A stretch of DNA of 64,000 nt from positions 35,914-99,913 of the forward strand of contig DASZZM010000026.1 of the NCBI GenBank assembly GCA_035544895.1, read 5' to 3'. The position numbers and the translations under genes were made by a program. Position 1 is the first letter of the stretch, and each line of letters starts with the position of its first letter. Source of the DNA: Thermoanaerobaculia bacterium (GTDB lineage Bacteria > Acidobacteriota > Thermoanaerobaculia > Multivoradales > UBA5704). Positions 39,195 through 58,433 of the stretch are shown one piece after another. The notes under the pieces are model-generated. The model searched no databases. It was not told the DNA's origin and worked only from the letters and a program-made list of their open reading frames with translations.

Positions 39195-42100
39195 GCGGTG
39201 GGAGGGCCGACCGGCTGGCGCGGCTCGAGAAGCTGTCGCCGGCCAAGCAGGCCCTGCTGGCGCGCGCGCTGCGCGAGCGCGCGGCGCGGCAGCAGGGCGG
39301 CGCCATTCCGCGCCGCCCCGGCTCCGAGCGCGGCGGGCGCGGCGGGAGCAGCCCGGCGCCGCTGTCGTTCGGACAGCAGCGGCTGTGGCTGGAGCGGCAG
39401 ATGAGCCCGGACAGCCCGGTTTACAACCTGCCGGTCGCGGTCCGCATCGAAGGGAGGCTCGACGCGCGGGCCCTGGCGGCGGCGCTCTCGGAGGTGGTGC
39501 GCCGCCACGAGGTGTTGCGCAGCGGGATCGAGCGCCGGGGCGAGGAGCTGGTGCAGGTCGTCGCGCCGGCGGCTGCCGTGCCGCTGGCGCTGGCCGACCT
39601 GTCGGGCCTGCCCGCCAGCGGCCGGCAGGCGGAGGTGGCGCGGCTCGGAGCCGACCATGCCCGGCGGCTCTTCGACCTCTCCCGTCCGCCCCTCGTGCGC
39701 GCCGCCCTGCTCGCGCTCGGCGGCGACGAGCACCGGCTGCTCCTTGCCCTGCATCACATCGCCGCCGACGGGTGGTCGAGCGCCATCCTGGTGCGCGAGC
39801 TCGGAGAGCTGTACGCCGCCCGCGCGGCCGGCCGGCCTTCGCCGCTGGGCGAGCTGCCGATCCAGTACGCCGACTGGGCCGCCTGGCAGCGCGGGCGGCT
39901 CGCGGGCGAGCTTCTGGCGGCCGAGCTCGATTACTGGCGCGAGCGCCTGGCGGGCCTGCCGCCGCTCGAGCTCCCGGCCGATCGGCCGCGGCCGCCGGCG
40001 GCAAGCTTCCGCGGCCGGCGCCGGGAGCGGCTCCTGGCGCCGCGGCTGCACGGCGCGCTGGCGGACCTGTCGCGCCGGCAGGGGGCGACCATGTTCATGA
40101 CCCTGGCCGCCGGCTTCGCCGCCCTGCTCGGCCGCTGGACCGGCCAGGACGACCTGGCGGTGGGCACGCCGGTCGCGGGCCGCACTCGCCTCGAGACCGA
40201 AGGGCTGATCGGGTTCTTCGTCAATATCCTGGTGCTGCGGGCGGACCTCGCCGGCAGCCCTTCTTTCACCCAGCTCCTGTCGCGGCTGCGCGCCACGGTA
40301 GCGGCTGCACACGCCCACCAGGAGCTTCCTTTCGAGCGCCTGGTCGAGGAGCTCGCCCCGGCTCGCGATCCGGGCGGCCATCCCCTGGTGCAGGCCATCC
40401 TCGCTCTGCACAACGCCGCGCGCGAGCAGCTGGCGCTGCCGGGCCTGGCCCTGACGCTCTTGGAGACCGACACCGGTACGGCGAAGCTCGACCTCGCCCT
40501 GGAGATCGTCGAGCAGCCGGAGGGCGGGCTCGCCGCCGGGCTGGAGGTGGCCAGCGACCTCTTCGACGCCACCACTGCCGCGCGCCTGCTCGGTCATTTC
40601 GAGGCGCTTCTCGCCGGGGCCGCCGCGGCGCCCGCAATGCCGTTGCGCGATCTTCCGTTGCTCGGCGCGGCCGAGATCCACCAGCTCGTGCGGGAGCACA
40701 ACGACACGCGGAGCGCCTATCCGCGGGACTCCGCGGTGGCCGAGCTGTTCGCAGAGTGGGCGCGCGCGGCGCCACAGGCGCCTGCGGTGCTGGCCGAGGG
40801 GAGGGAGCCGTGGAGCTACGGCAGGCTCGCGGCGGAGTCGCACCGCCTCGCCTGGCACCTGCGCTCGCTCGGGGTCGAGCGGGAGTCGCGGGTAGGGGTG
40901 TCGATGGAGCGTTCGCCGGAGCTGATCGCGGCGCTGCTCGCGATCCTCCAGGCGGGCGGAGCCTACGTTCCACTCGACCCCGGTTACCCGGACTCCCGGC
41001 TGCGATTCATGTTGCAGGACACCGGGACACGGCTCCTGCTCGTCCATGAGCCGACGCGGCAGCGACTGGCCGCGCTGGAGTGGCCGGACGGCGCGCCGCC
41101 GGTCCGGCTCCTATGTGTGGATGCGGAGCGCGAGGTGATCGCCGGCCGCGGCAGCGCGCCGCCGCCGCGAAGCCCTGTCTCCGCGGGTGCCGAGGGGCTG
41201 GCTTACGTCCTCTACACCTCCGGCTCGACCGGGCAGCCGAAGGGAGTGGCGGTGCCGCACCGTGCGATCGCGCGGCTGGTGCGAGGCACGAATTACGTCC
41301 GGCTGGGGCCGGCGGACCGGGTGGCGCACCTGTCGAACATCAGCTTCGACGCCGCGACGTTCGAGATCTGGGGGGCGCTGGCCAACGGCGGAGCTACGGT
41401 GGTAATCGAGCGCGAGGCGGTGCTGTCGCCAGCGCGCCTGGCGGCGCGGTTGCGCGAGGCGGCAGTGACCGCGATGTTCCTCACCGCCGCCTTGTTCGAC
41501 CAGGTGGTTGGCGAGCAGCCGGCGGCTTTCTCCGCGCTGCGCCATCTGCTGGTGGGGGGCGATGCCCTGGACCCGCAGTCGGTGGCGCGGGCCCTCGCCG
41601 CGGGGCCGCCGGAGCGGCTGCTCAACGGCTACGGGCCGACCGAGAGCACGACGTTCGCGGTCTGGCACGAGGTGAGGCACGTCCCGCCCGGATCGCTCTC
41701 GGTGCCCATCGGCCGGCCGCTTGCCAACACGACCGCTCACGTGGTTGACCGGCGAGGCGAGCTGGCATCGACGGGTCAGGTCGGCGAGCTCTGGCTGGGC
41801 GGAGACGGGCTGGCGCGCGGGTATCTCGGCCGGCCGGACCTGACCGCGGAGAGGTTCGTGCCCGACCGCTGGAGCCGGGAGCCGGGAGGGCGGCTCTACC
41901 GCACGGGCGACCTGGCGCGCCGGCGCTGGGACGGGGTGATCGACTGCCTGGGGAGGATCGATCAGCAGGTCAAGATCCGAGGGTTCCGTGTCGAGCCCGG
42001 GGAAATCGAAGCGGTGCTTGCCGCCTGCCCGGGAGTGCGCGACTGCGCCGTGGTGGCGCGCCTGCAAGTCAGTTCCCCGGCGCATCCGATCACCTCCCCG

Positions 42101-45100
42101 GCGCCTCCGATCCGATCCCCGGCGCTGGTGGCCTACGTCGTCGCCGCGCCCGCGGCGGGGCTGCGCGAGGCCTTGGTGTGGGAGCACCTGAGGCGGTCGC
42201 TTCCCGGGTACATGCTGCCCGTGGCTTGCCGCTTCGTCGAGTCGTTGCCGCTGACGCCCAACGCCAAGCTGGACCGGGCGGCGCTGGCCGCGCTGGACCC
42301 GCTGGACCTGCTGGAAATCACCGCGGGGCCGCCGGCGCAAGACTACGCGGCGCCGCGCGACCCGATCGAGGAGCTGCTGGCCGGCATCTGGGAGAAGGTG
42401 CTGGGGATCGACCGCATCGGCGTCCGGGACGACTTCTTCGTTCTCGGCGGGCACTCGTTGCTGGCGGCGCGGCTGGCGGCGCGGGTGCACCAGGTCTTCG
42501 GGATCGACCTGCCCCTGCGCACCCTGTTCGAGACGCCGACCGTGGCGGGCGTGGCCGCCGCCATCCGCGCCACCCTGGCCACTCGCTCCCCCCGCTCCGA
42601 CACCGTTTCCGGGGTCCAACCGCCGGCGCCCATCCCACGCGCCGGCCGCGGCGAGGGCGGCCCGCGGCCGCTGTCCTTCGGCCAGCAGCGTCTCTGGTTC
42701 ATCTATCAGATGAACCCCCGGAGCGCGGCCTACAACCTGCTGGTCGCCCTGCTGCTGGCCGGCGCTCTGGATCGCCGCGCCCTCGCCGCCGCCCTGGCGG
42801 AGGTCGTGCGCCGCCATGAAGTCCTGCGCACCGCCATCGTGGCCGAGGGGGGACCGGCGGGAGCGGCGCAGCGGCTGACGCCGCCCCCCGCCCCCCGCCT
42901 TCCCGTGGTCGACCTGTCGGGGCTGGCCGAGCCGGTTGCCGGCGCCGAGTCCCTGCGGCTCGCGGCCGCGGAAGCGCTGCAGCCGTTCGACCTGGGCCGC
43001 CCGCCGCTGCTGCGCGCCGCTCTCCTCGCGCTCGCCGCGCCCGCCGATGGGCCCGCCGGTGGGTCAGCCGGCGGCGGGCCACCCCGGCACCTGCTCGTCC
43101 TCACCCTCCACCACATCGCGGCGGACGGCTGGTCGAGCGCCATCCTGGTCCGCGAAACGGCGGCGCTCTACGCGGCCTTCGCGGCGGGCCGGCAATCGCC
43201 CCTGCCCGAGCCGCCGCTGCAATACGCCGATTGGGCCGCCTGGCAGCGCGGCCGCCTGAGCGGAGAGCTCCTGGCCTCCCAGCTCGCCTGGTGGCGGCAG
43301 CGCCTGGCCGGGCTGCCGGATCTCCGCCTGCCGGCCGACCGGCCGCGTCCGGCGGTCGAGAGCTTCCGCGGCCTGCGGCGCTCGCGCTTGCTGCCGGCCG
43401 GGGCGAGCGCACGGCTCGACGAGCTGTCGCGGCGCCAGGGGGCGACCCTGTTCATGACCCTGGCCGCGGCGTTCGCGGCGGTTCTCCGGCGCCTGGGCGG
43501 CGAGGAAGACTTCGGCCTCGGCACGCCGATCGCCGGCCGCACCCGGATGGAGACGGAGGGGCTGATCGGCTTCTTCGTCAACACCCTGGTCCTGCGCTTC
43601 GACGTGCCTGGAGACCCGGCGTTTTCCCGGCTGCTCGCTCACGCGCGGGAGGCGCTGCTCGAGGGCTACTCGCACCAGGACCTGCCCTTCGAGCGGCTGG
43701 TCGAGGAGCTCGCCCCCCGGCGCGACCTCTCCCGCCAGCCGCTGGTCCAGGCCTTCGTGGTCCTGCAGAACACACCCCGCGAGCCGCTCGCCCTGCCCGG
43801 GCTGACCGCGACCGAGCTCGCGGTCGACAACCGGACGGCGAAAACCGATCTGACCCTCGACGTCGCTCGCGCGGGCGGCGGCCTGCGCGCGGAGCTCGAG
43901 GCCAACCACGACCTCTTCGACGCCGCCACCGCGGCCCGGATGCTCTCCCATCTCGAGACCCTGCTCGCCGCCGCGGCCGCCGACCCCGAACAGCCGCTGT
44001 CGCGCCTGCCGCTGCTCAGCGCGGCGGAACGCCACCAGATGATCGTCGAGTGGGGTGGGCTCGCCGAAGCGCGGGCGCCTGCCGGATGGACCCTGCACAA
44101 CGCTTTCGAGTCTCGGGCGCGGCTCTCCCCCGCCGCCCTCGCCCTCTCCTGCGCGGGGGAGCAGGTGAGCTATGGCGAGCTCGACGCCCGCGCCAATCGG
44201 CTGGCGCGCCACCTGCGCAGCCTCGGCGCCGGGCCGGAGGTGCGGGTCGGCCTCTGCCTCGCGCGCTCGGCCGAGACGGTGGTCGCGCTGCTTGCCGTCC
44301 TCAAGGCGGGCGGAGCCTATCTGCCGCTCGACCCGGACTATCCGCGCGAGCGGCTGGCCCTTCTCCTCGCGGATGCCGCCGCCCCGCTGGTCGTCACCCG
44401 CTCCAACCTCGCCGGCCTGCTGCCAGCGGCCGGTCCGCTCCAGATCCTGCTCGACCGCGATGCCGAGGCGATCGCGCGCCAGCCATCCGGCCCCCTGCCG
44501 CCCGCGGCCGGCCCCGATCATGCTGCCTACGTGATCTATACCTCCGGCTCGACCGGGCGCCCCAAGGGCGTCGTCGTCACCCATCGCAACGTCGCCCGCC
44601 TGTTCATCGCGGCCGCGCCCTGGCTCGAGCTAGCCGGCGACGACGTCTGGACCTTGTTCCACTCCTTTGCCTTCGACTTCTCGGTCTGGGAGATCTGGGG
44701 CGCCCTCCTCCACGGCGGCCGTCTGGTCGTCGTCCCTTACTGGGCAAGCCGCTCTCCCGACACCTTCCGCGGACTGCTGCGCGACGAGCAGGTAACGGTG
44801 CTCAACCAGACCCCCTCGGCCTTCCGCCAGCTGGTCGAAGCCGAGGAAAGGGTGGTGCCGGCGCCGACGGGTCCCTACCCGGCGGTTCGATCGGGCGCGC
44901 TGGGTCCCTACCCAGCGATTCAATCGGATGCGCCGGGTCCCTACCCGGCGCTGCGCCTCATCCTCTTCGGGGGCGAGAGTCTCGATCCCCGCCACCTGCG
45001 CACGTGGTTCGCGCGCCATGGCGACCGGCGTCCCCGCCTGTTCAACCTGTATGGGATCACCGAGACCACCGTGCACGTCACCTGCCGTCCGCTCGCCGCG

Positions 45101-48100
45101 GCCGATGCGCGGAGCGGCAGGAGCGAGGTCGGGCGGCCGCTCGCCGACCTCGCGGTGCGGGTGCTCGATCCGGGTCTCCGGCCGGCGCCGATCGGCATCC
45201 CGGGAGAGCTCTGCGTCGGCGGCGCGGGCCTGGCCCGCGGCTATCTCGGCCGGCCGGAGCTGACCGCCGAGCGTTTCGTTCCCGATCCCTTCGCCCGCTC
45301 CGCTGGCGACGGCGGCGCGCGGCTCTATCGCTCCGGGGACCTCGCCCGCTGGCGGCCCGACGGCGACATCGAGGTGCTCGGGCGCATCGATCTCCAGGTC
45401 AAGATCCGCGGCTTCCGCATCGAGCCCGGGGAGATCGAAGCCGCCCTCCGCGAGCACCCCGGGGTTCGGGAGTGTGCGGTCCTGGCGAGCGAGGAGGCCG
45501 GCGGCCACCGCCGCCTGATCGCCTACCAGGTGTCGCGCGGCGAGCCGGTTCCGGCCGCCGAGCTGCGGGCCTTCCTGGCCGAGCGCCTTCCCGGACCCAT
45601 GCTGCCGGCGGGCTTCGTGGCGCTCGCCAGCCTGCCCCTCACCGCTCACGGCAAACTCGACCGCCGCGCCTTGCCCGCTCTCGCGCCCGCTGCCATGCGC
45701 CCGAGCGGAGAGGCCGCCCGGCCGCAAACACCGCGCACGCCGGTCGAGCAAGCGATCGCGGCGAGCTGGTCCGAGGTCTTGGATGTACGGCGCGTCGGCC
45801 TCGACGACGATTTCTTCGCCTTGGGCGGCGACTCGATCCGCGGCATCCAGGTGCGGGTGCGGGCCGAAGAGCGCGGGGTGAGCTTCACCCTGCGGCAGCT
45901 CTTCCAGCACCCCACCGTCCGCAATCTTGCGGAGGTGGCGGCGGAGGTGGATGCGGAGGGGTCCGAAATGACCGGGCCGGCGGTCGGGCCCGGCACGCCG
46001 CCCTTTTCCCTGATCTCGGCGGCCGACCGCTCCCGGCTCCCGGAGGGGGTCGAAGATGCCTATCCGCTGACCCGCACCCAGGCCGGCCTGGTCTTTCACA
46101 GCGAGTACGGCCGCGACTACCAGATCTACGTGAGCAGCCTGCACCTGCGGGCGCCGCTCGACGTCGGCAGGCTGCGGCTCGCCCTCTCCCGGCTCGTCGC
46201 CCGGCACCCCCTGCTGCGCACCTCTTTTGCCCTGCAAGGCTTCTCCGCGCCGCTTCAGCTCGTCCACCGTGCGGGGCGCGAAGGAGAGCCGCTCCGGCCC
46301 GAGCTGGCGGTGGTGGACCTGCGTGGCCTCGCTCCGGCGGTCCAGGAAGAGGTGGTCACGCGCTGGCTCGCCGTCGAGGTGCGGCGCAAGTTCGACTGGG
46401 GACGGCCGCCTCTCATCCGCCTGCACCTCCACCCTCGCGGCGAGGACACTTTCCAGCTCACCCTCTCCGAGCCCTTCCTCGACGGCTGGAGCGTGGGCCT
46501 CTTCCTGACCGAGCTCTTCACCCGCTATCTGGCTCTCGTCGCCGCTGCCCGTCCCCAGCTCGGCCTGCCGGCCGAGCCGCCCGACGAGCGGCCGCTCGCC
46601 AGCTCCTTCGCCGACTATGTCGCCCTGGAACGAGACGCGCTGGCCTCCGCCGAGCAGCGGGCCTTCTGGGAGCTGCGCGGTGATCGCGGCGATGGCGGCG
46701 CCTCGCGCCTGCCGCGCAATTGCCCCGTCGTCTGCGCCGTCGTCCGCGCCGCGCCTGGCGCCGGCCCGCCACCGCCCGTGGTGCGTCTCGAAGTGCCGGT
46801 CCCGCGGACCGTCTCGCTCGGCCTGCGGCAGGCGGCACTCGGGGCCGGCGTGCCGCTCAAGGACCTGCTGCTCGCGGCCCACCTTCGGGTCCTTGCGTTC
46901 TTGACTGGGGAATCGGACGTGGTCACCGCCCACCTCATCAACGGGCGCCCCGAAGGCGCCGACGGCGACCGGATCCTCGGCGGCTTCCTCAATGCCATGC
47001 CTTTCCGCATGCGCCTGGTCCCGGGCTCCTGGCTCGACCTGGCAAGGCAAACCTTCGCCACCGAGCTCGAGCTGCTCCCCTTCCGGCGCTATCCCCTGGC
47101 TGAGATGGCCGAGATGGCCGAGCTGCAGCGCCGGCGCCCGGCCGATCCGGTCGACCCGGCAGCAGGGAATCGACCGGAGGGCGGCGGGTCCCTGCCCGCC
47201 GCCATTGGACGGCCACCTTTCGACACGCTCTTCAACTTCACCCACTTCCATCTCTACGAGCGTCTGCAGAGGATTCCAGGACTGGCCGTCCTGGGCAGCG
47301 CGGGCTCGGAGCAGACCTACTTTCCGCTGACCGCGCAATTCAACCTCGACGAGATCACCGCACAGGTCACCCTCGGCCTCGACTACCTGGCGGCCGAGCT
47401 CGCACCGGCCGAAGCGTCGGCCATTGCCGCCCGCTACGACCGGGTCCTGGCAGCCATTGCCCGCGCGCCGCTCTCTCCTCACGACGGCCTCTGCCTGCTC
47501 TCCCCGGCGGAGCGCCAGCAGGTCGTCCTGGAGTGGGGGGAAATGGATGCCCCCTACCGCTTCTCGGAGCAGAGGAGTTTCCTGCGAGGAGAACCCGTAA
47601 CCGGCCTCGCGCATGAGCTGTTCGCGGCCCAGGCGGCGCGGCGGCCCGACGCCCGCGCCTTGCTCTGGGAACAGACCACGCTGACCTACGGCGAGCTCGC
47701 CGCGCGCGCTTCGAGCCTGGCGCGCCGCCTCGCCGCGGCAGGGGCGGGCCCCGAAGCGCGGGTCGGCGTGCTTCTCGAGCGCTCTCCGCAGATGGTCGCG
47801 GCAATCCTCGGCGCGCTGGCGGCCGGCGCCGCCTATGTCCCCCTCGACCCCGGCTATCCGCCCGAGCGGACCGCCGCGATGATCGCGGGCGCACGGGCCG
47901 GAGTGGTGGTGACGCGGCGCGGCCTCGTCGAGCTGCTGCCGCCGGAGGTCTCGTGCCTGCTGGTCGACGAGCCGGACGAGGGTGCGCCCGTGCCAGCCAA
48001 TCTATCGGATCGCCCCCTGCGACCTGCCGGGAGTGCCGCCAATGGCGGGAGCGGCGGCCAACCCCTCGATCCCCCTCCCACCCTCTCGCAGCACGGAGTT

Positions 48101-51100
48101 TCGTCTTTCCACCCGGACGGACGCGGGGCGCTCCCCGCAAACCTCTTTGCCGTGATCTTCACCTCGGGCTCGACGGGACAACCCAAGGGAGTCGCCATCG
48201 AACACCGCGGCGTCAGCCACTTCCTGGCCGCCGCCGCGCGCCTCTTCGGGCCCGCGGACCGCGCGGGCGTTCTGGCCGCCGCCTCGATCTGCTTCGACCT
48301 CTCGATCTTCGAGCTGTTCCTGCCGCTCGCCAACGGCGGCACGGCCGTTCTCGCCGGCGGTGCGCTCGACCTTCCCCGCCTGCCGGCGCGCGAGGACGTC
48401 ACCATGGCTTGCCTCGTGCCTTCCACCGCCGCGGACCTGGTGCGTTCCGGCGGCGGCTTTCCGGACTCGTTGCGGGCCCTCACCCTCGGCGGCGAAGCCC
48501 TTCCCGCTCCGCTCGTCCAGGCGCTCGTCGCAAGCGGTGCGGCTTGCCGGGTTTCCAATCATTACGGACCGACCGAGGCCACCATCTACTCGCTGTTCGC
48601 CCCCGTCGATTGCAAGGGAGGGGGCGGGGGCGGCGCCGATGCCGGCGCGCCGCCGATCGGCCGGGCGGTCGCGGGAGAGCGCGCCCTGCTGCTCGACGGC
48701 TGGCTGCAACCGGTCGCTCCCGGAGTGCCGGGCGAGATCTGCCTGGGCGGCAGCGGCCTGGCGCGTGGCTATTTCGCGCGTCCCGACCTCACCGCCGAGC
48801 GCTTCGTGCCGGATCCCGCCTCCGCGCTCCACGGCGAGCCCGGCGCACGCCTGTACCGCACCGGCGACCTCGCCCGCCAGCTCCCCGACGGCCGGATCGA
48901 ATTCCTGGGCCGCCGCGACCACCAGGTGAAGGTGCGCGGCTTCCGCATCGAGCTCGGCGACGTGGAGGCGGCGGTCGCTCGGCACCCCGAAGTCGCCCAG
49001 GCCGTGGTGGTGGCGCGTGGCGAAGAGGGCATCGGTCCGGACGGCGTCCGGCTGGTGGCCTACGTCGTGGCGCGCGATTCTCGGCGGACCTCCGCCGCCG
49101 GGCCGGCTGCCCAACCGCTAGCCCACGACGCTTCCTGGGCCGCTGAGCTGCGCGACTTCGCCGCGCTGCGCCTCCCGCCTTTCATGGTCCCCTCCGTCTT
49201 CGTCACGCTGGACGCCCTGCCGCTCACCCCCGCCGGCAAGGTCGACCGCCGAGCCCTCCCGGCGCCGCCCGACCGGCGCGGCGGCGGCGGCGCGCGGCCC
49301 CTGGTCGCTCCGCGCACGCCGGTCGAGGAAGTGCTCTGCGGGCTGTGGGCCGAGGTCTTCGGCATGGAGCGGGTGAGCGCCGGCGACGATTTCTTCGCTC
49401 TCGGCGGCCACTCCCTGCTGGCCACGCGCCTGATCTCGCGGCTGCGCGCCGCCTTCCGGCTGGAGCTGCCGCTCGACGCCCTGTTCGCGGCGCCGCGCCT
49501 CTCCGACCTGGCGCGGGTGATCGAGGGCGAGCTCGCCGGCGGAGACGCCGCGGGTCCCGCGGAGCCGCCGCTGGCCGCCGGTCCGCGGCCGGACGCCGTG
49601 CCTCTCTCCTTCGCCCAGCAGCGGCTCTGGTTCCTCGACCGCCTGCAACCGGGGAGCTGCCTGTACAACATCCCGAATGCCACCCGCTTGCGCGGCGGGC
49701 TCGCCGCGCCGGCACTGGCCGCCGCCTGCCTGGAGATCGTGCGCCGTCACGAGGTCCTCCGCACCCGCTTTCCGGCGGTCGAGGGACGGCCGGTCCAGGA
49801 GGTCTCGGCGGAGCCGGAGGCGCCATTGCCGCTGCTCGATCTCGCGGCGCTCTCGGTCGCTGCACGCGAGGCCGAGACGGCGCGCCTGTGCGCCGCCGCG
49901 GCCCGCCGCCCCTTCGATCTCGGGAGCGGCCCCGTCCTGCGGCTCCTGCTCTTGCGGCTGGCGTCCGAGGAGCACGTGCTGCTCTCGGTGGTGCACCATA
50001 TCGCCGCCGACGGCTGGTCGGTCGATGTCTTCCTGCGCGAGCTGGCGCTGCTCTACCGCGCCTTCTCTGCCAAGGAGCGGTCTACCGCGCCGCCCTTGCC
50101 CGCGCTCCCGCTGCAATACGCCGATTTCACCTTGTGGCAGCGCGCCCGCCTGCAGGGCGCGGTGCTCGACCGCCAGCTCGCCTGGTGGCGCGAGCGGCTG
50201 CAGGGCGTCCCGCCGTTGACTTTGCCGGCCGACCGTCCCCGGTCGTCGACCCCGGCCTACCGGGGGGCCCGCCGCCGCCTCGAGCTGCCGGCCGGCGTGG
50301 CGGAGGCCGCGGCCGGCCTCGCCCGCCGCGAAGGGGCGACCCTGTTCATGACCGTCCTCTGCGCTTTTGCGGCGGTGCTCGGACGGCATGCCGGGCAAGA
50401 GGACTTTGCAATCGGCTATCCCATCGCCAATCGCAACCGGTTGGAAATCGAGCCCTTGATCGGGTTCTTCGCCAACACCTTGGTGCTGCGCGCGGATCTC
50501 GCCGGCGACCCCGCGGGGCGGGACCTGCTCGGCCGCTGCCGCGAGGCGGTGCTCGGCGCCCATGCCCACCAGGACCTGCCGTTCGAGAGGCTGGTCGAAG
50601 AGCTGCGCCCCGAGCGCGACCTCTCGCGGACGCCGCTCTTCCAGGCGGCGCTGGCGTTTCAGAATGCCCCTCCGGCGGACGTCGCCCGGATCGATCTGCC
50701 AGGCCTCGCCGCTACCCCCGTCGAGATCGAGCCGGGGGCCGCCCGTTTCGAGCTCACTCTCTTCCTGGTCGAGCAACGCGACGGATGCCCGGGGAGCGCG
50801 GCTGCCCTTGCGGGCGAGCTCGAATGGAACGCCGACCTCTTCGACCGGGCCACCGCCGCCCGCTTCCTCGGCCATTTCAGGATCCTGCTCGCGGACCTCG
50901 CCGCCGACGCGGGGCGGCGGCTCTCGGAGCTGTCCCTGCTGACCGAGGCGGAGCGCCACCAGGTCCTTTACGAGTGGGCGAAGGGAAGGCTGCCCGAGAT
51001 CGGCGAAGCCGGAGAGGTCGGCGCGGCCGAGCCGCTGGTTCACCGGCTCATCGCGGCGCAAGCGGCACGGACACCCGCGGCGGCCGCGATCGCCCACGCG

Positions 51101-53617
51101 GGTGGCGAGCTGCTGACCTACGGCGCCCTGGCAGCGCGCACCCAGCGACTCGCCCGCCGCCTGCGGGCCAGCGGCGTTGGTCCCGAGGTCGTGGTAGGTA
51201 TTCGCATGGAACGCGGAGCCCCGGCGCTGGTGGCGATCCTCGCCGTGCTCGAGGCGGGCGGGGCCTACCTGCCGCTCGACCCGTCCTACCCGGACGAGCG
51301 ACTCGCCTTCATGCTCGCCGACGCCGGCGTCCGGCTCGTGCTCGACGAGAGCTCCGAGAGCGCGGTGGCAGACTCCGAGCCGGCCTCCAACGCCGGGCAG
51401 GGACCCGGCGATGTCAGACCGTCCGATCTCCAGCCCCTGCCCGAGAACGCCGCCTATGTGATCTACACCTCGGGCTCCACCGGCCAACCGAAAGGAGTGG
51501 TGGTGAGTCATCGCGCGCTCCTGCGCTCGACGCGCGCCCGCCTGCAGGGCTACTCCGGGCTGGTGCCGGCTTTTCTGCTGCTCCCCTCCCTGGCCTTCGA
51601 CAGCTCGGTAGCGGTCATCTTCTGGACTCTCTGCCAGGGAGGCCGCCTGGTCATTCCGGACAGGAGCCGGCAGTCCGACCCCGTCGAGCTCGCGCGCCTC
51701 ATCGCCGAGCACGGCGTCTCGCATTGGCTGAGCATTCCGCCGCTCTACGCCCAGCTGCTCGCCCATCACCCGCAGCCCTCCGACCTTGGCCCGCTGCGCA
51801 CCGTCATCGTGGCCGGCGAGCCTTGTCCCGCCCAGCTCGTGGCCGAGCATCACGCCCGCCTTCCGGGCGTGATGCTCCACAATGAGTACGGACCCACCGA
51901 GGCCACGGTGTGGGCGACCGTCGACGCGCCGGCTCCCGGAGGAACGGTGACGATCGGCCGGCCGATCGCGGGCGTCGAGGCCCGCCTGCTCGATCGCGCC
52001 CTGGCGCCGGTGCCCGCCGGCGTCGGCGCCGAGCTCCTGATCGGCGGAGCCGGCCTGAGCCGCGGCTACCTCGGCCGGCCCGGCCTGACCGCGCGGCGCT
52101 TCATTCCCGACCCGCTCGCCGGGATCTCGGCCGAGCCCGGCGCCCGGCTCTATCGCACCGGCGACCTCGCGGGCTGGCTGCCCGACGGCCGCCTGGAGCT
52201 CCGGGGACGGATCGACCGCCAGGTCAAGATCCGCGGCTTCCGCATCGAGCTGGGCGAAGTCGAGGCTGCCTTGCTGCGCCACCCTGGCGTGCGGCGGGCC
52301 GCCGCGCTCGCCCGCGATCTCCCCTCCGGCGGCCGCGGGCTGGTGGCGTGCTTCGAGCCGGCGGCGGAGCTTCCGGCGGCCGCTCTGGCGCCCGCCGAGG
52401 CGCGCCGTTACCTGGCCGAGCGCCTGCCCGCTCCCATGGTCCCTGCCGAGCTGTTCGCGCTCCCGGCTCTGCCGCTGCTGCCCAATGGCAAGGTGGACGA
52501 TCGGGCCCTGCTCGCCCTGCTGCCGGCGAGCGCGGACTCCGCGGGGCGCCAGCCCGGGACGCCCGCGGACGAGCTGGAGACGCGCCTGGCGGGACTCTGG
52601 GCGGACCTCTTGGGCCTCGCCGCGGTGGGTCGGAGCGACAGCTTCTTCGAGCTGGGCGGCCATTCGCTCCTGGCCGTCGAGCTGATGGCCCGGATCCAGC
52701 GGGAGCTCGGACGCAAGCTCCCTCTCGCCGCGCTCTTCCGCGGCGCCACCGTCGAGTCCATGGCCGCCGCGCTGCGCCAGGAAAGCGGCCCGCTGCTCGC
52801 CAGGCCGCTCGTCGCCATCCGGCCGCGCGGGGCCGAGCGCCCCTTCTTCTGGGTCCACCCGCTGGGAGGCCGCACGCTTTGCTACGCCGATCTCGCCCGC
52901 CGCCTGGCCGGCCGTCCGAGCTACGGGCTCGAGGCGCCGGGGAGTGACGGCCTCGGCGAACCCTCCGCCAGCGTCGAGGAGCTCGCGGCGCTCTACGTCG
53001 AGGCCCTCGGCCGGGTCCAGACGAGCGGGCCCTACTTGCTTGGCGGTTGGTCTTTCGGCGGACTGATCGCCTGGGAGATGGCCCGGCAGCTCGCCGAGCG
53101 CGGCGCGGCAGTGGCGCTCGTGGCCCTCCTCGACACGACCCTGCCGAGCCCGCGGACTCTGCGGACCCTGCGGACCCTGCAGACCCTGCGGGGACCGGCC
53201 GGAGAGCCTTCGCGCCGCGACGACGTCTCTCTCTCCGCTCTGCTGCGCGCCGAACCAGGTGGCGCGGCCCTCGACCAGCGGCAGCTCGACCGTCTCCTCG
53301 CGGTCGTCGAGGCGCATCTGCACGCCTTCGCCGCCTATCGTCCGCGGCCCCTCGCCTGTCCCGTCGCGCTCCTGGGGGCGGAAGAGCGCCCGCCCGCGGC
53401 CGGCGCCGGCGCTCGCGGAGTCGCGGCCTGGCGCCGCCTGGCGCGCGGTCCGTTCCACTATCGCCGGATCCCGGGAGATCACTACGCCATGCTGCGCGAG
53501 CCCCGGGTCAGCCACGTTGCCACCGAGCTGGAAGCGCTCCTGGCTCGCACAGCGCGGAATTCTCGCCGGCAGGCGTCGCAAGGAGACGCGGCTCCACGGC
53601 CGAGCGAGGTAAACTAA
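39191..53617 (+). CDS. Non-ribosomal peptide synthetase 2 (about 4800 aa). Domain order C-A-T-C-A-T-C*-A-T-C-A-T-TE.
   Basis: The ATG at 39191 overlaps the NRPS1 stop (ATGA). Four A domains (SGSTGQPKGV or SGSTGRPKGV) and four T domains. Three canonical C domains (HHIAADGWS). One C-like domain where the motif is SEPFLDGWS. Terminal thioesterase (GGWSFGGLIAWE). The 5034-aa ORF in the track begins in a different frame upstream. Confidence 0.95.
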   Translation: MSGGRADRLARLEKLSPAKQALLARALRERAARQQGGAIPRRPGSERGGRGGSSPAPLSFGQQRLWLERQMSPDSPVYNLPVAVRIEGRLDARALAAALSEVVRRHEVLRSGIERRGEELVQVVAPAAAVPLALADLSGLPASGRQAEVARLGADHARRLFDLSRPPLVRAALLALGGDEHRLLLALHHIAADGWSSAILVRELGELYAARAAGRPSPLGELPIQYADWAAWQRGRLAGELLAAELDYWRERLAGLPPLELPADRPRPPAASFRGRRRERLLAPRLHGALADLSRRQGATMFMTLAAGFAALLGRWTGQDDLAVGTPVAGRTRLETEGLIGFFVNILVLRADLAGSPSFTQLLSRLRATVAAAHAHQELPFERLVEELAPARDPGGHPLVQAILALHNAAREQLALPGLALTLLETDTGTAKLDLALEIVEQPEGGLAAGLEVASDLFDATTAARLLGHFEALLAGAAAAPAMPLRDLPLLGAAEIHQLVREHNDTRSAYPRDSAVAELFAEWARAAPQAPAVLAEGREPWSYGRLAAESHRLAWHLRSLGVERESRVGVSMERSPELIAALLAILQAGGAYVPLDPGYPDSRLRFMLQDTGTRLLLVHEPTRQRLAALEWPDGAPPVRLLCVDAEREVIAGRGSAPPPRSPVSAGAEGLAYVLYTSGSTGQPKGVAVPHRAIARLVRGTNYVRLGPADRVAHLSNISFDAATFEIWGALANGGATVVIEREAVLSPARLAARLREAAVTAMFLTAALFDQVVGEQPAAFSALRHLLVGGDALDPQSVARALAAGPPERLLNGYGPTESTTFAVWHEVRHVPPGSLSVPIGRPLANTTAHVVDRRGELASTGQVGELWLGGDGLARGYLGRPDLTAERFVPDRWSREPGGRLYRTGDLARRRWDGVIDCLGRIDQQVKIRGFRVEPGEIEAVLAACPGVRDCAVVARLQVSSPAHPITSPAPPIRSPALVAYVVAAPAAGLREALVWEHLRRSLPGYMLPVACRFVESLPLTPNAKLDRAALAALDPLDLLEITAGPPAQDYAAPRDPIEELLAGIWEKVLGIDRIGVRDDFFVLGGHSLLAARLAARVHQVFGIDLPLRTLFETPTVAGVAAAIRATLATRSPRSDTVSGVQPPAPIPRAGRGEGGPRPLSFGQQRLWFIYQMNPRSAAYNLLVALLLAGALDRRALAAALAEVVRRHEVLRTAIVAEGGPAGAAQRLTPPPAPRLPVVDLSGLAEPVAGAESLRLAAAEALQPFDLGRPPLLRAALLALAAPADGPAGGSAGGGPPRHLLVLTLHHIAADGWSSAILVRETAALYAAFAAGRQSPLPEPPLQYADWAAWQRGRLSGELLASQLAWWRQRLAGLPDLRLPADRPRPAVESFRGLRRSRLLPAGASARLDELSRRQGATLFMTLAAAFAAVLRRLGGEEDFGLGTPIAGRTRMETEGLIGFFVNTLVLRFDVPGDPAFSRLLAHAREALLEGYSHQDLPFERLVEELAPRRDLSRQPLVQAFVVLQNTPREPLALPGLTATELAVDNRTAKTDLTLDVARAGGGLRAELEANHDLFDAATAARMLSHLETLLAAAAADPEQPLSRLPLLSAAERHQMIVEWGGLAEARAPAGWTLHNAFESRARLSPAALALSCAGEQVSYGELDARANRLARHLRSLGAGPEVRVGLCLARSAETVVALLAVLKAGGAYLPLDPDYPRERLALLLADAAAPLVVTRSNLAGLLPAAGPLQILLDRDAEAIARQPSGPLPPAAGPDHAAYVIYTSGSTGRPKGVVVTHRNVARLFIAAAPWLELAGDDVWTLFHSFAFDFSVWEIWGALLHGGRLVVVPYWASRSPDTFRGLLRDEQVTVLNQTPSAFRQLVEAEERVVPAPTGPYPAVRSGALGPYPAIQSDAPGPYPALRLILFGGESLDPRHLRTWFARHGDRRPRLFNLYGITETTVHVTCRPLAAADARSGRSEVGRPLADLAVRVLDPGLRPAPIGIPGELCVGGAGLARGYLGRPELTAERFVPDPFARSAGDGGARLYRSGDLARWRPDGDIEVLGRIDLQVKIRGFRIEPGEIEAALREHPGVRECAVLASEEAGGHRRLIAYQVSRGEPVPAAELRAFLAERLPGPMLPAGFVALASLPLTAHGKLDRRALPALAPAAMRPSGEAARPQTPRTPVEQAIAASWSEVLDVRRVGLDDDFFALGGDSIRGIQVRVRAEERGVSFTLRQLFQHPTVRNLAEVAAEVDAEGSEMTGPAVGPGTPPFSLISAADRSRLPEGVEDAYPLTRTQAGLVFHSEYGRDYQIYVSSLHLRAPLDVGRLRLALSRLVARHPLLRTSFALQGFSAPLQLVHRAGREGEPLRPELAVVDLRGLAPAVQEEVVTRWLAVEVRRKFDWGRPPLIRLHLHPRGEDTFQLTLSEPFLDGWSVGLFLTELFTRYLALVAAARPQLGLPAEPPDERPLASSFADYVALERDALASAEQRAFWELRGDRGDGGASRLPRNCPVVCAVVRAAPGAGPPPPVVRLEVPVPRTVSLGLRQAALGAGVPLKDLLLAAHLRVLAFLTGESDVVTAHLINGRPEGADGDRILGGFLNAMPFRMRLVPGSWLDLARQTFATELELLPFRRYPLAEMAEMAELQRRRPADPVDPAAGNRPEGGGSLPAAIGRPPFDTLFNFTHFHLYERLQRIPGLAVLGSAGSEQTYFPLTAQFNLDEITAQVTLGLDYLAAELAPAEASAIAARYDRVLAAIARAPLSPHDGLCLLSPAERQQVVLEWGEMDAPYRFSEQRSFLRGEPVTGLAHELFAAQAARRPDARALLWEQTTLTYGELAARASSLARRLAAAGAGPEARVGVLLERSPQMVAAILGALAAGAAYVPLDPGYPPERTAAMIAGARAGVVVTRRGLVELLPPEVSCLLVDEPDEGAPVPANLSDRPLRPAGSAANGGSGGQPLDPPPTLSQHGVSSFHPDGRGALPANLFAVIFTSGSTGQPKGVAIEHRGVSHFLAAAARLFGPADRAGVLAAASICFDLSIFELFLPLANGGTAVLAGGALDLPRLPAREDVTMACLVPSTAADLVRSGGGFPDSLRALTLGGEALPAPLVQALVASGAACRVSNHYGPTEATIYSLFAPVDCKGGGGGGADAGAPPIGRAVAGERALLLDGWLQPVAPGVPGEICLGGSGLARGYFARPDLTAERFVPDPASALHGEPGARLYRTGDLARQLPDGRIEFLGRRDHQVKVRGFRIELGDVEAAVARHPEVAQAVVVARGEEGIGPDGVRLVAYVVARDSRRTSAAGPAAQPLAHDASWAAELRDFAALRLPPFMVPSVFVTLDALPLTPAGKVDRRALPAPPDRRGGGGARPLVAPRTPVEEVLCGLWAEVFGMERVSAGDDFFALGGHSLLATRLISRLRAAFRLELPLDALFAAPRLSDLARVIEGELAGGDAAGPAEPPLAAGPRPDAVPLSFAQQRLWFLDRLQPGSCLYNIPNATRLRGGLAAPALAAACLEIVRRHEVLRTRFPAVEGRPVQEVSAEPEAPLPLLDLAALSVAAREAETARLCAAAARRPFDLGSGPVLRLLLLRLASEEHVLLSVVHHIAADGWSVDVFLRELALLYRAFSAKERSTAPPLPALPLQYADFTLWQRARLQGAVLDRQLAWWRERLQGVPPLTLPADRPRSSTPAYRGARRRLELPAGVAEAAAGLARREGATLFMTVLCAFAAVLGRHAGQEDFAIGYPIANRNRLEIEPLIGFFANTLVLRADLAGDPAGRDLLGRCREAVLGAHAHQDLPFERLVEELRPERDLSRTPLFQAALAFQNAPPADVARIDLPGLAATPVEIEPGAARFELTLFLVEQRDGCPGSAAALAGELEWNADLFDRATAARFLGHFRILLADLAADAGRRLSELSLLTEAERHQVLYEWAKGRLPEIGEAGEVGAAEPLVHRLIAAQAARTPAAAAIAHAGGELLTYGALAARTQRLARRLRASGVGPEVVVGIRMERGAPALVAILAVLEAGGAYLPLDPSYPDERLAFMLADAGVRLVLDESSESAVADSEPASNAGQGPGDVRPSDLQPLPENAAYVIYTSGSTGQPKGVVVSHRALLRSTRARLQGYSGLVPAFLLLPSLAFDSSVAVIFWTLCQGGRLVIPDRSRQSDPVELARLIAEHGVSHWLSIPPLYAQLLAHHPQPSDLGPLRTVIVAGEPCPAQLVAEHHARLPGVMLHNEYGPTEATVWATVDAPAPGGTVTIGRPIAGVEARLLDRALAPVPAGVGAELLIGGAGLSRGYLGRPGLTARRFIPDPLAGISAEPGARLYRTGDLAGWLPDGRLELRGRIDRQVKIRGFRIELGEVEAALLRHPGVRRAAALARDLPSGGRGLVACFEPAAELPAAALAPAEARRYLAERLPAPMVPAELFALPALPLLPNGKVDDRALLALLPASADSAGRQPGTPADELETRLAGLWADLLGLAAVGRSDSFFELGGHSLLAVELMARIQRELGRKLPLAALFRGATVESMAAALRQESGPLLARPLVAIRPRGAERPFFWVHPLGGRTLCYADLARRLAGRPSYGLEAPGSDGLGEPSASVEELAALYVEALGRVQTSGPYLLGGWSFGGLIAWEMARQLAERGAAVALVALLDTTLPSPRTLRTLRTLQTLRGPAGEPSRRDDVSLSALLRAEPGGAALDQRQLDRLLAVVEAHLHAFAAYRPRPLACPVALLGAEERPPAAGAGARGVAAWRRLARGPFHYRRIPGDHYAMLREPRVSHVATELEALLARTARNSRRQASQGDAAPRPSEVN
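48020..48059. repeat. Single copy of the 40-bp REP-like element, inserted in-frame in the third A domain of NRPS2.
   Basis: CGACCTGCCGGGAGTGCCGCCAATGGCGGGAGCGGCGGCC, encoding PAGSAANGGSGG in the variable loop before the SGSTGQPKG core motif. Confidence 0.65.
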
Positions 53618-53681
53618 TCCGCTGGGTTCCCGTATCAGCCTTGCGTTACGTCATCGGGCAATCCGCCCGAGAGAGGTGCAC

Positions 53682-55043
53682 ATGAAGCGTTTCAATGCAC
53701 TGCTGCTGGCGACGGTTGCCGCCCTGCTCCTGATCTCCGCGACCGCATCGGCCGCCGTTGCTCCACCCCAGCCGGGCGCCCCTCCGCAGACGGAGACCGC
53801 GACCGCCCATCTCGACCCCGACGCGGCCACCGCGGCCTATCTCGCCCGGCTGTCCCCCGAGGCGCGGGCCAAGTCCGACGCTTACTTCGAAGGCGGCTAT
53901 TGGCTGATCCTGTGGGACTTCCTGGCCGGCCTCGCCGTCGCCTGGCTGTTCCTGGGCACGCACCTTTCGTCACGCATGCGGGACTGGGCAGAGCGCATCA
54001 CATCCTCCAGAGGGCTGCAGACCGCCATCTACTCGGCCCTCTACATCTTGATCTCCTCCGTGGTGTTGTTGCCGTTGGCTGCCTACGAAGGCTACTTCCG
54101 CGAGCACCAGTACGGCATGTCCAACCAGGACATGAGCGCCTGGCTCGGAGACCAGATGAAGGGGCTTGCGCTCGGGCTCGTCTTCGGCACCCTCGCCTTT
54201 ACGGCGATCTACGCCGTCATCCGCAAGGCGCCGCGCACCTGGTGGCTCTGGGGGGCGCTCGTCGCCATCGGATTGGCCATGTTCGCCGTGGCCATCGCAC
54301 CCGTGTACGTCGAGCCTCTGTTCAATAAATTCAAGCCGCTGACCGAAAGCCCGCTCAAGCACCAGATCCTCTCCATGGCGCGGGCCAACGGCATCCCGGC
54401 CAGCGACGTGTATGAATTCGACGCTTCCAAGCAGACCAAGCGCATGAGCGCGCACGTGAGCGGCTTGCTCGGCACCACGCGAATCAGCATGAACGACAAC
54501 CTGATGAAGCGCGGCTCGCCGGAAGAGATCGAGGCGGTGCTGGGCCACGAGATGGGCCATTACGTCCTGAACCACGTCTACAAGGGCATCGTCTTCATCG
54601 GCATCATCGTCGTCGTCGGTTTCGCCTTCTTGCGCTGGTCCTTCGGCAGGCTGCAAGCCAGCCGCGGACTGCGCTGGGGGATCCGCGATATCGGCGACGT
54701 CAGCGGCTTGCCACTGCTGCTCGTTCTGTTTTCGGTGTTCATGTTCGTGCTGACGCCGGTGCTGAACACCCTCACCCGCACCATGGAAGCGGAGGCGGAT
54801 GCCTTTGGCATGAACGCGTCGCGCCAGCCGGACGGCTTCGCCCAGGCGGCGCTGCACCTCTCCGAGTACCGCAAGATGCAACCCGGGACCATCGAGGAAT
54901 ACTTCTTCTACGACCATCCGAGTGGCTGGAACCGCATCCACCGCGCCATGGTGTGGAAGGCGGAGCACCTCAACGACGCCGACATCGCTGCATACGACGC
55001 CGCGCATCGCCTGGCGGCAATCGCTGCGCCGGGCAAGAAGTAA
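53682..55043 (+). CDS. M48-family (HtpX/Ste24-like) membrane zinc metalloprotease.
   Basis: HEMGHY (HExxH) zinc site with the downstream EAEAD. Signal peptide and multiple TM segments. Starts 65 bp after the NRPS stop. Confidence 0.85.
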   Translation: MKRFNALLLATVAALLLISATASAAVAPPQPGAPPQTETATAHLDPDAATAAYLARLSPEARAKSDAYFEGGYWLILWDFLAGLAVAWLFLGTHLSSRMRDWAERITSSRGLQTAIYSALYILISSVVLLPLAAYEGYFREHQYGMSNQDMSAWLGDQMKGLALGLVFGTLAFTAIYAVIRKAPRTWWLWGALVAIGLAMFAVAIAPVYVEPLFNKFKPLTESPLKHQILSMARANGIPASDVYEFDASKQTKRMSAHVSGLLGTTRISMNDNLMKRGSPEEIEAVLGHEMGHYVLNHVYKGIVFIGIIVVVGFAFLRWSFGRLQASRGLRWGIRDIGDVSGLPLLLVLFSVFMFVLTPVLNTLTRTMEAEADAFGMNASRQPDGFAQAALHLSEYRKMQPGTIEEYFFYDHPSGWNRIHRAMVWKAEHLNDADIAAYDAAHRLAAIAAPGKK

Positions 55044-55164
55044 CCCAAGGCCGATGTCGCCGGTGACCCGCTTCAGACGAAAAGTATCTGGGGGGCGGCT
55101 CGCGCCGTGTTAGGCTGTCATCCGGGGAAGGCTCGGGCGCCTTCGTCACCGTGGCAAGCACGCG

Positions 55165-55521
55165 ATGAAATCAAGACTCCTCTCCGCCTTCGTTGCGGCC
55201 TTGCTTTTCGTTGCCAGCGGTTTCGGGCCTCATCCTTGCCACCCCCGCGACCGGATCTCGGCGACCTCCAGGCCAGCGGCGATGCCCGCCTGCCACCAGG
55301 CCGCGGCGGGGGAAGCTCCCGGCCAGGGCGTCCCGGCCCTCAGCGCCGCGGGGCGCGATTGCTGCGGCAGCGTGTGCGAGCACGCCTGCCTGAGCTCGGG
55401 GGACCGGCAAGAGAGCATGCTTCTCTGCCCGCTGCGCATGGCTTCGGCGGCCTCGCCTGAAGCGGCGCAAGTCGTCCCGCCCCTCCTCGTTTCGAGCATC
55501 GAGCACGTCCCTCTCTCCTAG
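55165..55521 (+). CDS. Small secreted Cys/His-rich protein. Putative periplasmic metal-binding protein.
   Basis: Signal peptide. Motifs HPCHP, ACHQ, DCCGSVCEHAC, LLCPL. Sits between the M48 protease gene and the CopB-like gene. Confidence 0.45.
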   Translation: MKSRLLSAFVAALLFVASGFGPHPCHPRDRISATSRPAAMPACHQAAAGEAPGQGVPALSAAGRDCCGSVCEHACLSSGDRQESMLLCPLRMASAASPEAAQVVPPLLVSSIEHVPLS

Positions 55522-55649
55522 CAGCTCCTGATCTCCGCTGTCGCCGTTCGCGTCGAGGATCGACGGTCCCCAACGGCGGCACCTCCTTCAACTGACCGGT
55601 TGCGGGCCTGCCAAGAGCTTGGCGAGGACTGCGCCTCAGGAGCTGCACC

Positions 55650-57167: not shown

Positions 57168-57226
57168 GCGACCAGGGCCGCACCTTCGTCTCTTCCTGGG
57201 TGAGACCACAGGGGCGCAGGGAGGGC

Positions 57227-57258
57227 TTGACATTGGACTCGATTCCAGGGTTTAGGAT
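57227..57258 (+). promoter_or_regulatory. Candidate MerR-type promoter: a -35 TTGACA, a 19-20 bp spacer containing a dyad, and a -10 TAGGAT.
   Basis: TTGACA-ttggactcgattccagggt-TTAGGAT. The over-long spacer is the hallmark of MerR-family regulated promoters. TGGA-n6-TCCA dyad in the spacer. It lies 40 bp upstream of the MerR-family gene. Confidence 0.4.
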
Positions 57259-57298
57259 GCCCGCATGACGCATTGCACCTGCCCCGTCGAGTCCGGCG

Positions 57299-58380: not shown

Positions 58381-58433
58381 GTCGTGGTCGTTACCAGTTG
58401 ACACACACGACTGCCAACTGCTAGAACGAAAAG

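Follow-up and report, generated by a model that had tools for sequence, protein, structure and literature searches.

A 39-nt hairpin repeat of Thermoanaerobaculia, probably REP-like, read in frame within an NRPS gene and a ChrB-like gene

Introduction

Rickettsia palindromic elements (RPEs) were reportedly described by Ogata et al. in 2000. RPEs lie in frame within unrelated genes (PMC10969869, PMC3733652), and repetitive extragenic palindromic sequences (REPs), whose GTAG- and CGTC-tagged superfamilies are defined by a tetranucleotide at the end of the palindrome, are found inside open reading frames (ORFs) of several species, where they encode about 13 to 82 residues (PMC3733652). Here, we describe a hairpin repeat that lies in frame in two unrelated genes, a nonribosomal peptide synthetase (NRPS) gene and a ChrB-like gene, of a Thermoanaerobaculia bacterium (Acidobacteriota). 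Both genes are part of a 64,000-nt stretch of contig DASZZM010000026.1 (positions 35,914 to 99,913, forward strand), referred to below as the window; loci from other assemblies are designated by L numbers and homologous proteins by P numbers. The repeat unit is 39 nt long (13 codons; 38 nt in some copies) and consists, in this order, of a 15-nt box (CGACCTGCCGGGAGT), a 5′ stem arm of 6–7 nt, a loop of 10–12 nt and a complementary 3′ arm.

The unit resembles REPs and bacterial interspersed mosaic elements (BIMEs) in being a stem-loop in the 20–40-nt range with conserved sequence adjoining the palindrome, and, in the copies inspected, in its dispersed, mostly intergenic location, often just downstream of ORFs, with a minority of copies wholly within ORFs; as with BIMEs, the organization ranges from single units and dimers to arrays and to mosaics that include other motifs. 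It differs from REPs in that neither GTAG nor CGTC is present at the end of the palindrome (GTAG occurs solely within the loop of one subfamily, caatGGTAGatg), the box in front of the stem taking the place of the tag. The stem is short (6–7 bp) and closes a loop of 10–12 nt, the unit acts as a self-contained insertion of 39 nt within other palindromes, no link to a REP-associated tyrosine transposase (RAYT) was seen in a weak tblastn test of fetched loci, and Thermoanaerobaculia lie outside the surveyed clades. Since the tag is missing, “REP-like” is used here for behavior and not for family membership.

With RPEs the unit shares its palindromic nature, its in-frame presence at fold-compatible sites of unrelated ORFs and its reading as an extra peptide. 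RPE-1, however, is about 100–150 bp long, encodes a conserved peptide and carries the CGTC tag, and nearly half of RPE copies are intragenic, whereas the unit is 39 nt long, mostly intergenic, encodes a low-complexity peptide and is found in at least three frames or orientations. No sequence relationship was seen, and the host of the unit is free-living and of high G+C content. MITEs, the miniature inverted-repeat transposable elements, and intragenic ERIC sequences (PMC10969869, PMC3184786) are likewise small non-autonomous repeats for which in-frame fusions are possible, and one 204–206-nt element that hosts the unit is MITE-like; unlike MITEs, the unit itself has no terminal inverted repeats and, in three filled/empty comparisons, no target duplication. 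Finally, the insertion sequences (ISs) of the IS200/IS605 family and the RAYT/TIRYT systems (PMC6006769, PMC3733652) offer a parallel in a hairpin whose adjacent sequence would serve for recognition, in the lack of target duplication and in insertion into potentially single-stranded DNA such as hairpin loops, and Acidobacteria encode TIRYT-type Y1 transposases (PMC6006769, PMC3733652). The differences are that no transposase gene was linked to the units in the fetched loci, that no conserved tetra- or pentanucleotide target was seen and that the unit is far smaller than any IS.

We found no description of this family in the literature searched on repeats of Acidobacteria or Thermoanaerobaculia, and it appears to be undescribed. 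The sequence-only reading that drew attention to the repeat called a small mobile repeat with in-frame insertions unusual, which was an overstatement given the documented REPs in ORFs and in-frame RPEs (PMC3733652, PMC10969869): the unit works like a REP/BIME or an RPE without belonging to those families, and the occurrence of repeats in ORFs is itself already known.

Results

Two matching loci in long ORFs of the window

The 40-mer at positions 48020–48059 (plus strand), in the NRPS gene, matches 59376–59415 and 59435–59474, in the ChrB-like gene, with two mismatches to each. No such match was obtained in 100 dinucleotide-preserving shuffles, the chance expectation being 0. On both strands of the window, no further copy was detected at up to four mismatches or by a covariance-model search, and shorter sub-patterns of the 40-mer were also confined to the NRPS and ChrB loci. 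Both loci are within long ORFs that stay open across the repeat, and they share one frame, with the predicted peptide RPAGSAxNGGSxG. The central claim of the sequence-only reading, that a small REP-like repeat is present in frame in two unrelated genes and is read as a Gly/Ser/Ala-rich predicted peptide, is thus borne out. The length of 40 bp proposed for the unit had to be corrected to 39 nt. The G+C content of the window is about 70%. The ChrB protein of the window is 100% identical to a protein of a Thermoanaerobaculia (Acidobacteriota) metagenome-assembled genome (MAG); in an exact look-up of the window ChrB product and of P0001, neither was recorded.

A composite insertion in an NRPS adenylation domain

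The first copy is located in NRPS-2, a protein of ~4,800 residues, within an AMP-binding domain and upstream of the A3 core motif FTSGSTGQPKG, in agreement with its earlier placement in front of a core motif of an adenylation (A) domain; the predicted peptide around the repeat is ...RPAGSAANGGSGG.... The insert had been taken for a single copy of the repeat. It is in fact a composite of 102 nt (47987–48088, plus strand; 34 codons, predicted peptide PVPANLSDRPLRPAGSAANGGSGGQPLDPPPTLS) in the A2–A3 loop. The left arm (47987–48019, plus strand; ..ATCTATCGGATCGCCCCCTG) matches intergenic mosaics of the MAG SMAG_U6239, assembly GCA_035544875.1, and is identical to L029 over 18/18 nt. It is followed by the 39-nt unit (48020–48058, plus strand; covariance model score 63.9 bits, E = 4e-14), with the box CGACCTGCCGGGAGT at 48020–48034, the 5′ stem GCCGCC at 48035–48040, the loop AATGGCGGGAGC at 48041–48052 and the 3′ stem GGCGGC at 48053–48058. 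The right arm (48059–48088, plus strand; CAACCCCTCGATCCCCCTCCCACCC..) matches the mosaics of L037, L079 and L019 at 24/25 nt and positions 15032–15052 of the window at 20/21 nt. The left and right arms are contiguous in the SMAG_U6239 mosaics and, since CGATCC of the right arm pairs with GGATCG of the left arm, the unit lies in the loop of that hairpin.

An independently assembled contig of the Joint Genome Institute (JGI; 3300062721, Ga0599163), L115, is syntenic with positions 48087–60835 of the window, from the NRPS gene to beyond the ChrB-like gene, at 95.5% nucleotide identity. Its NRPS site is empty (GACGAGGGTGCG/CAGCACGGAG) and lacks exactly 102 nt, with flanks identical at 32/32 and 20/20 nt. 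The A2–A3 loop is also shorter in six paralogous A domains and in 58%-identical homologues. The protein search for NRPS orthologues retrieved relatives of at most 59% identity, the true orthologue being longer than the listed proteins, and these relatives serve as outgroups only. Sequence comparison thus supports the view that the 102-nt indel would be an insertion in the window lineage. In an AlphaFold model of the A domain (predicted template modeling score 0.77), the insert falls within a ~55-residue low-confidence stretch between two confident strands; the predicted local distance difference test value is <50 at model residues 127–182, with means of 10-residue blocks of 28–34 over residues 131–180. 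As modeled, therefore, the NRPS insert is in a disordered loop. Peptide-level searches with the insert sequences gave no match at E ≤ 10, probably due to low-complexity filtering.

L115 also carries an intergenic unit at 13811–13851 that has the stem and loop of the NRPS copy and, at 97.5% identity, is its closest relative; the stretch syntenic with the window stops ~1.4 kb upstream of this unit.

Nested units in the tail of the ChrB-like protein

The second insertion, of 171 nt or 57 codons (59376–59546, plus strand), lies in the part of the ChrB-like gene (58434–59606) that specifies the C-terminal tail, between ..LYGSF and RKRLP.., and encodes the predicted peptide RPAGSAGNGGSAG.... About four tandem copies at 59383–59513 had been thought to form the C-terminal 80 amino acids of the protein. 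There are four units, but they are nested rather than simply tandem, they span 59376–59546, and the repeat supplies only 57 of the last 78 residues. Unit 1 (59376–59414, plus strand; stems GCCGGC/GCCGGC, 66.4 bits) is absent from L115. The 5′ part of unit 2 (59415–59434, plus strand), comprising the box and GCCGG, is interrupted by unit 3 (59435–59473, plus strand; 60.5 bits), whose stems, GTCGCC/GGCGAC, are a compensatory variant; the 3′ part of unit 2 (59474–59492, plus strand), comprising C, the loop and GCCGGC, follows and restores the reading frame. When 59415–59434 is joined to 59474–59492, the exact sequence of unit 1 is obtained. Because unit 3 is nested within unit 2, it is translated in a different frame (+2), with the predicted peptide DLPGVSPMAGAAT. 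Unit 4 (59493–59546, plus strand) is a full-length match to the model (32.3 bits) with an expanded loop, which contains a palindrome, referred to as Y (AGCGCCGGG aaggga CCCGGCGCT), followed by TCCGAT; Y matches positions 44923–44952 (28/30) and 29193–29213 of the window. A division of the array into half-units of 20 nt and 19 nt, arranged A-B-A-A-B-B-A, was replaced by unit-in-unit nesting once the hairpin anatomy was known.

The units begin three residues past the end of the Pfam ChrB_C domain, at residue 312 of 390. ChrB orthologues have from 0 to 4 forward units, and the content differs among the window, L115 and L116: the 91%-identical orthologue of L116 has one aberrant unit, and more distant orthologues have no forward unit. 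Comparison with orthologous genes, which the sequence-only reading had proposed, shows an empty NRPS site in L115 and varying unit numbers in ChrB. The frame from F to RKRLP is kept in orthologues P0002 and P0003. In the ChrB homologue of SMAG_U6239 (L117 10974–11020, minus strand), the C-terminal tail contains a diverged unit in reverse orientation (..RLPAGAASRGQAGTPRGS..), which shows that the repeat and the ChrB tail have been associated for longer; similar tails in many orthologues indicate that the repeat has occupied this end of the gene on several occasions or over a long period. An origin of the units in situ from an ancestral “RRLPAGA” tail was considered and set aside, since RKRLP is retained 3′ of the array.

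Related repeats are frequently found at contig ends and so do disturb assembly, and one may ask whether the assembler created the inserts by collapsing or mis-joining repeats. However, both inserts are flanked by sequence collinear with the independent JGI contig, the reading frame is kept exactly (102 and 171 nt), and the nested ChrB structure is present in L115 as well. We consider an artefact of this kind very improbable.

Hairpin anatomy of the unit

The stem occurs in the variants GCCGGC/GCCGGC, GCCGCC/GGCGGC, GCCGCA/TGCGGC, GCCGCG/CGCGGC, GTCGCG/CGCGAC and GTCGCC/GGCGAC, and the three full units of the window have three different stems, each fully complementary. In an alignment of 33 units, the stem cells are 100% paired and three of the six pairs covary (CG/GC, 18:15; CG/AU/GC, 20:7:6; CG/UA, 31:2). 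Pairing collapses in shifted-register controls, and RNAalifold, unaided, recovered the identical helix. In a non-circular control, a perfect 6-bp stem was found at a fixed offset in 32 of the 36 exact Thermoanaerobaculia-type box matches among the matches listed, and in 1 of 80 matches listed from other taxa. The box is nearly invariant over several species-level MAGs, the stem being kept through compensatory changes; the stem is flanked by ..GGGAGT on the 5′ side and by CC or CG on the 3′ side.

The two short hairpins first proposed have been replaced by one covariation-supported stem of 6 bp, closing a 12-nt loop. Single-strand thermodynamic folding of the window loci was no better than that of shuffled sequences (z = +0.18 and −1.4), and the two-hairpin picture was dropped for this reason. 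Searching Rfam at gathering thresholds with the window and nine repeat-bearing loci returned 0 matches.

Distribution of the family outside the window

Species-representative genomes were scanned for the 5′ half of the unit (GACCTGCCGGGAGYGYCGS), which retrieved at least 114 loci. Among the matches listed, 36, or about a third of the loci, are exact box matches in Thermoanaerobaculia-type MAGs; a single MAG, SMAG_U6239, accounts for at least 19 loci. The matches listed from other taxa (Streptomyces etc.) are without the 3′ half and look like chance. When metagenomes were scanned with the window loop variant AATGGCGGGAGC, 8 of the 25 matches were true units, four of them in the MITE-like element; it thus follows that the loop variant seen within a gene is also an ordinary non-coding repeat. 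The unit is dispersed over Thermoanaerobaculia MAGs and soil metagenomes. Inspected copies in related MAGs are mostly intergenic and on both strands, so that the question raised by the sequence-only reading, whether copies are always in coding loops, is answered in the negative. Calling of coding context by GC3 was too noisy at 70% G+C and was replaced by translation of spanning ORFs and Pfam.

Four settings recur: the apex of mosaics, the center of the MITE-like element, tandem arrays and solitary copies, and each unit subfamily tends toward one host context. The SMAG_U6239 mosaic consists of ~230 nt of nested palindromes with the unit at its apex. The palindromic 204–206-nt MITE-like element (L040 2060–2263, L111 820–1025, L112 7251–7456 and L131 440–645) carries the unit at its center and has terminal inverted repeats of ~19 nt (CTAGTGTCCCGAGTCAGAA) ending in CTAG; it is found in several Thermoanaerobaculia MAGs and soil metagenomes, frequently at contig ends. 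Tandem arrays with a period of 38–39 nt are present in L105, L067, L039 and L143, and a head-to-head pair of units in L015.

Copies are frequently located just 3′ of genes or inside operons. Together with the near-invariant box and the compensatory stem changes, this would fit a selected cis-element of the kind suggested for REPs and BIMEs, for example a protein-binding site or a module that stabilizes or terminates RNA. Its coding copies might then affect translation of the host genes or the stability of their mRNA. Yet the orientation to flanking genes is inconsistent: of the units of L082, found in the space that separates sufB from sufC and after sufD, one is antisense and one sense, and L037 has units after ssb, antisense to it, and between convergent genes. 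Moreover, there is no T-run 3′ of the hairpin, the Rfam match is absent, and presence or absence between close relatives is as expected for dispensable DNA. Such a function is an improbable account of the family.

In-frame copies are not limited to the window. In L071, an in-frame unit interrupts a Condensation domain, so that Pfam splits its match into two; in L080, an in-frame unit is located in the linker between the thiolation (T) and condensation (C) domains of an NRPS; and in L104 (~5400–5700), an NtrY-like sensor histidine kinase of SMAG_U6239 contains an in-frame block of ~65 residues upstream of the HAMP domain, composed of several different hairpin repeats, among them one 39-nt unit read in frame 2.

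These data also bear on the possibility that there is no DNA element at all, the similarity reflecting a codon-biased Gly/Ser/Ala-rich linker peptide or a coding segment copied between genes. The shared frame of both window copies (RPAGSAxNGGSxG) and the G+C content of ~70% could be explained in this way. However, most members are intergenic and occur on both strands, another frame is used in the nested unit of ChrB and in L104, the L117 copy is reversed, the stem covaries at the nucleotide level, and by chance 0 matches are expected. A peptide motif is excluded by the intergenic, both-strand and multi-frame copies together with this covariation, and we give the whole explanation hardly any credence. 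Nor is the repeat a common low-complexity sequence without conserved boundaries, as it has fixed boundaries and covarying stems and recurs in Thermoanaerobaculia.

Filled and empty sites

Filled and empty sites were compared in three independent cases; the difference is exactly 39 nt each time, and apart from an ambiguity of 1 nt no target-site duplication is seen. The mosaics of SMAG_U6239 can be ordered as a series of three layers, the final step of which is exactly 39 nt, into the loop of a palindrome; this palindrome, CCGCCGGGTCCC(GA/TG)CCCGGCGG, is found both empty and with the unit in its loop. The unit of the NRPS insert separates ...GGATCGCCCCCTG from CAACCCCTCGATCC..., which are contiguous in mosaics. 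In the ChrB array, unit 2 is cleanly split by unit 3 at the stem/loop junction. The window has an empty host form of its own, an intergenic mosaic palindromic repeat without the 39-nt unit (14975–15095, minus strand). It aligns with the L037 mosaic over 121 nt (90% identity, E = 1e-34), makes up the layer-0 row of the series and belongs to the type of host element that is present as a fragment in the NRPS insert.

Units or fragments could also be copied without any transposase, through replication template switching, gene conversion or microhomology-mediated recombination, all promoted by the hairpin-forming repeats and directed to other hairpins and to box-like coding sequence such as CTGCCGG (Leu-Pro-Gly/Ala/Glu codons); this explanation competes with the mechanistic step and not with the identity of the element. 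The NRPS insert fits recombination or template switching better than transposition, because it is only a mosaic fragment. Box-like native sequence is present beside the unit in L071 (CTGCCGGAGCTGCCGG), in L080 (CTGCCG) and in the ChrB tail of L117 (CGCCTGCCGGCCGG), the subfamilies are bound to particular host contexts, and no transposase was seen, albeit in a weak test of the fetched loci. On the other hand, presence or absence of exactly 39 nt with clean boundaries in three unrelated contexts speaks against this route, the long conserved box resembles a protein recognition site, and the putative microhomologies are short. We regard this route as a real possibility, although one that falls clearly short of even.

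Related pieces in other NRPS loops and further repeats of the window

Pieces related to the mosaics were found in other A-domain loops of the window. In the A4–A5 loop of another A domain of NRPS-2, a 33-nt in-frame tandem repeat of 2.5 copies (44868–44950, plus strand; GPYPAxxSxA) contains palindrome Y and ATCGGAT; this loop exceeds its counterparts in paralogues and in homologues P0121, P0124 and P0125 by ~20 residues or more, and the repeat is probably related mosaic-module material. A 21-nt in-frame tandem repeat of 2.5 copies in an A8–A9 loop (42074–42125, plus strand) has CCCGGCGCATCCGAT in common with 44923–44937, in opposite orientation. In NRPS-1, the A8–A9 loop of an A domain contains, in frame, a module of palindrome Y and TCCGA (29193–29220, minus strand; 27/28 to 44924–44951, E = 2.6e-7), and an A2–A3 loop contains a 26-nt piece of the mosaic outer stem (31616–31641, plus strand; GAGGGAGCGTCCCCTTCCCCCCGGAG; 21/22 to about 10 SMAG_U6239 mosaics). 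The A2–A3 loop of the last A domain of NRPS-2 has a copy of palindrome Y (51391–51410, plus strand) that is present in L115 too. A 20-nt palindrome, GCGCCGGGtnnnACCCGGCGC, followed by TCCGAT, occurs in both orientations in NRPS A-domain loops. Judging from matches of 15–30 nt (E from 1e-7 to 0.06), which are weaker than the main result, these pieces probably come from the same repeat system.

Several other features were recorded. A tandem array of a 23-nt unit (ATTCCGGAGTGAAGGCGGCCACC, 4–5 copies) at 10506–10620, just upstream of an ORF at 10746–11786, may be regulatory or iteron-like. Tandem Repeats Finder detected 9-nt repeats at 53137–53191 (GACCCTGCG, 6 copies), in the 3′ part of NRPS-2, and at 13383–13431 (CCGGCGGTA, 5.4 copies). 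Between the NRPS and ChrB loci, L115 has a GH25 lysozyme gene (7119–7900) where the window has 15 nt (55092–55106), and 1.1 kb of the window (57199–58314) is absent from L115 (at 9882); Pfam gave no match in this segment, and no transposase.

Discussion

We consider it probable that the element is a dispersed REP-like repeat of Thermoanaerobaculia with in-frame insertions. According to this interpretation, the normal home of the unit would be intergenic, where it would occur singly, as part of tandem arrays or embedded at the tip of larger mosaic palindromes, and it would behave as a discrete module, exactly 39 nt being gained or lost without target duplication. In the window lineage, a 102-nt mosaic fragment with one unit would have entered the A2–A3 loop of the NRPS, and several units the disordered tail of the ChrB-like protein. 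Such copies would persist in genes because their total length is a multiple of three, because the G+C-rich sequence is free of stops in the frames that are read, and because the sites (loop, linker, tail) are permissive, the insert being read as a flexible Gly/Ser/Ala/Pro-rich peptide. The arrays may later have been altered through further insertion or slippage.

The sequence data show family membership, a covarying hairpin, empty and filled sites, a preserved frame and a location in a loop or tail; that the unit is mobile, and by what means, we infer from these patterns. The lack of target duplication, the long conserved box beside the hairpin and the insertion into loops suggest a single-strand process of the HUH/RAYT type, and our preferred guess is that single-stranded hairpin DNA is acted on by a trans-acting enzyme of this type. 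We put this forward tentatively: on its own, it is somewhat less than an even prospect, and hairpin-promoted template switching or recombination, which fits about as well, is nearly as likely. The stronger proposal, that the 39-nt unit is a minimal mobile module excised and inserted precisely by an enzyme into hairpin loops, including those of its own copies, is more doubtful still.

Several observations weigh against the interpretation as a REP-like mobile repeat or against parts of it. The 33-unit alignment used for covariation was made of copies picked for having the hairpin and is circular in this respect. No conserved target sequence is evident at insertion sites, and a rule by which the unit would always lie in the loop of a larger hairpin gained no significant support from flank complementarity (9 observed versus a permuted mean of 5.7). 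The polarity of the 102-nt indel depends on one close relative and distant outgroups, and the insert is a fragment of a mosaic, that is, an incomplete element. Since subfamilies are tied to host contexts, much of the spread may have been that of larger mosaics and not of the unit. A tblastn search of the fetched 8-kb loci with IS608 TnpA and E. coli RAYT queries gave no match, although the test is a weak one. Lastly, the peptides of the inserts are predictions from the reading frames.

What is notable about the family is its nesting behavior and its repeated use of NRPS loops. For NRPS engineering, natural inserts mark sites that tolerate 10–35 extra residues, namely the A2–A3, A4–A5 and A8–A9 loops, a C-domain loop and a T–C linker. 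In practical terms, repeats of this kind break metagenome assemblies and, in MAGs of high G+C content, give rise to spurious ORFs and to gene ends that vary. A relative with 95.5% identity has the site empty, which provides a clean, recent case of selfish or structural DNA turned into protein sequence, and the nested ChrB copies illustrate how one DNA unit, through frame-shifted readings, yields different peptides. If the unit were a minimal mobile module, it would represent the smallest kind of non-autonomous element; with a predominant length divisible by three and no stops, it would repeatedly supply large multidomain enzymes, NRPSs for example, with new surface loops and linkers, and its copies would chart where insertions are naturally tolerated in A, C and T–C linker regions. 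As a new REP/BIME-like family from Acidobacteriota that lies outside the two tagged superfamilies, the repeat bears on how such elements originate and spread, perhaps without a RAYT.

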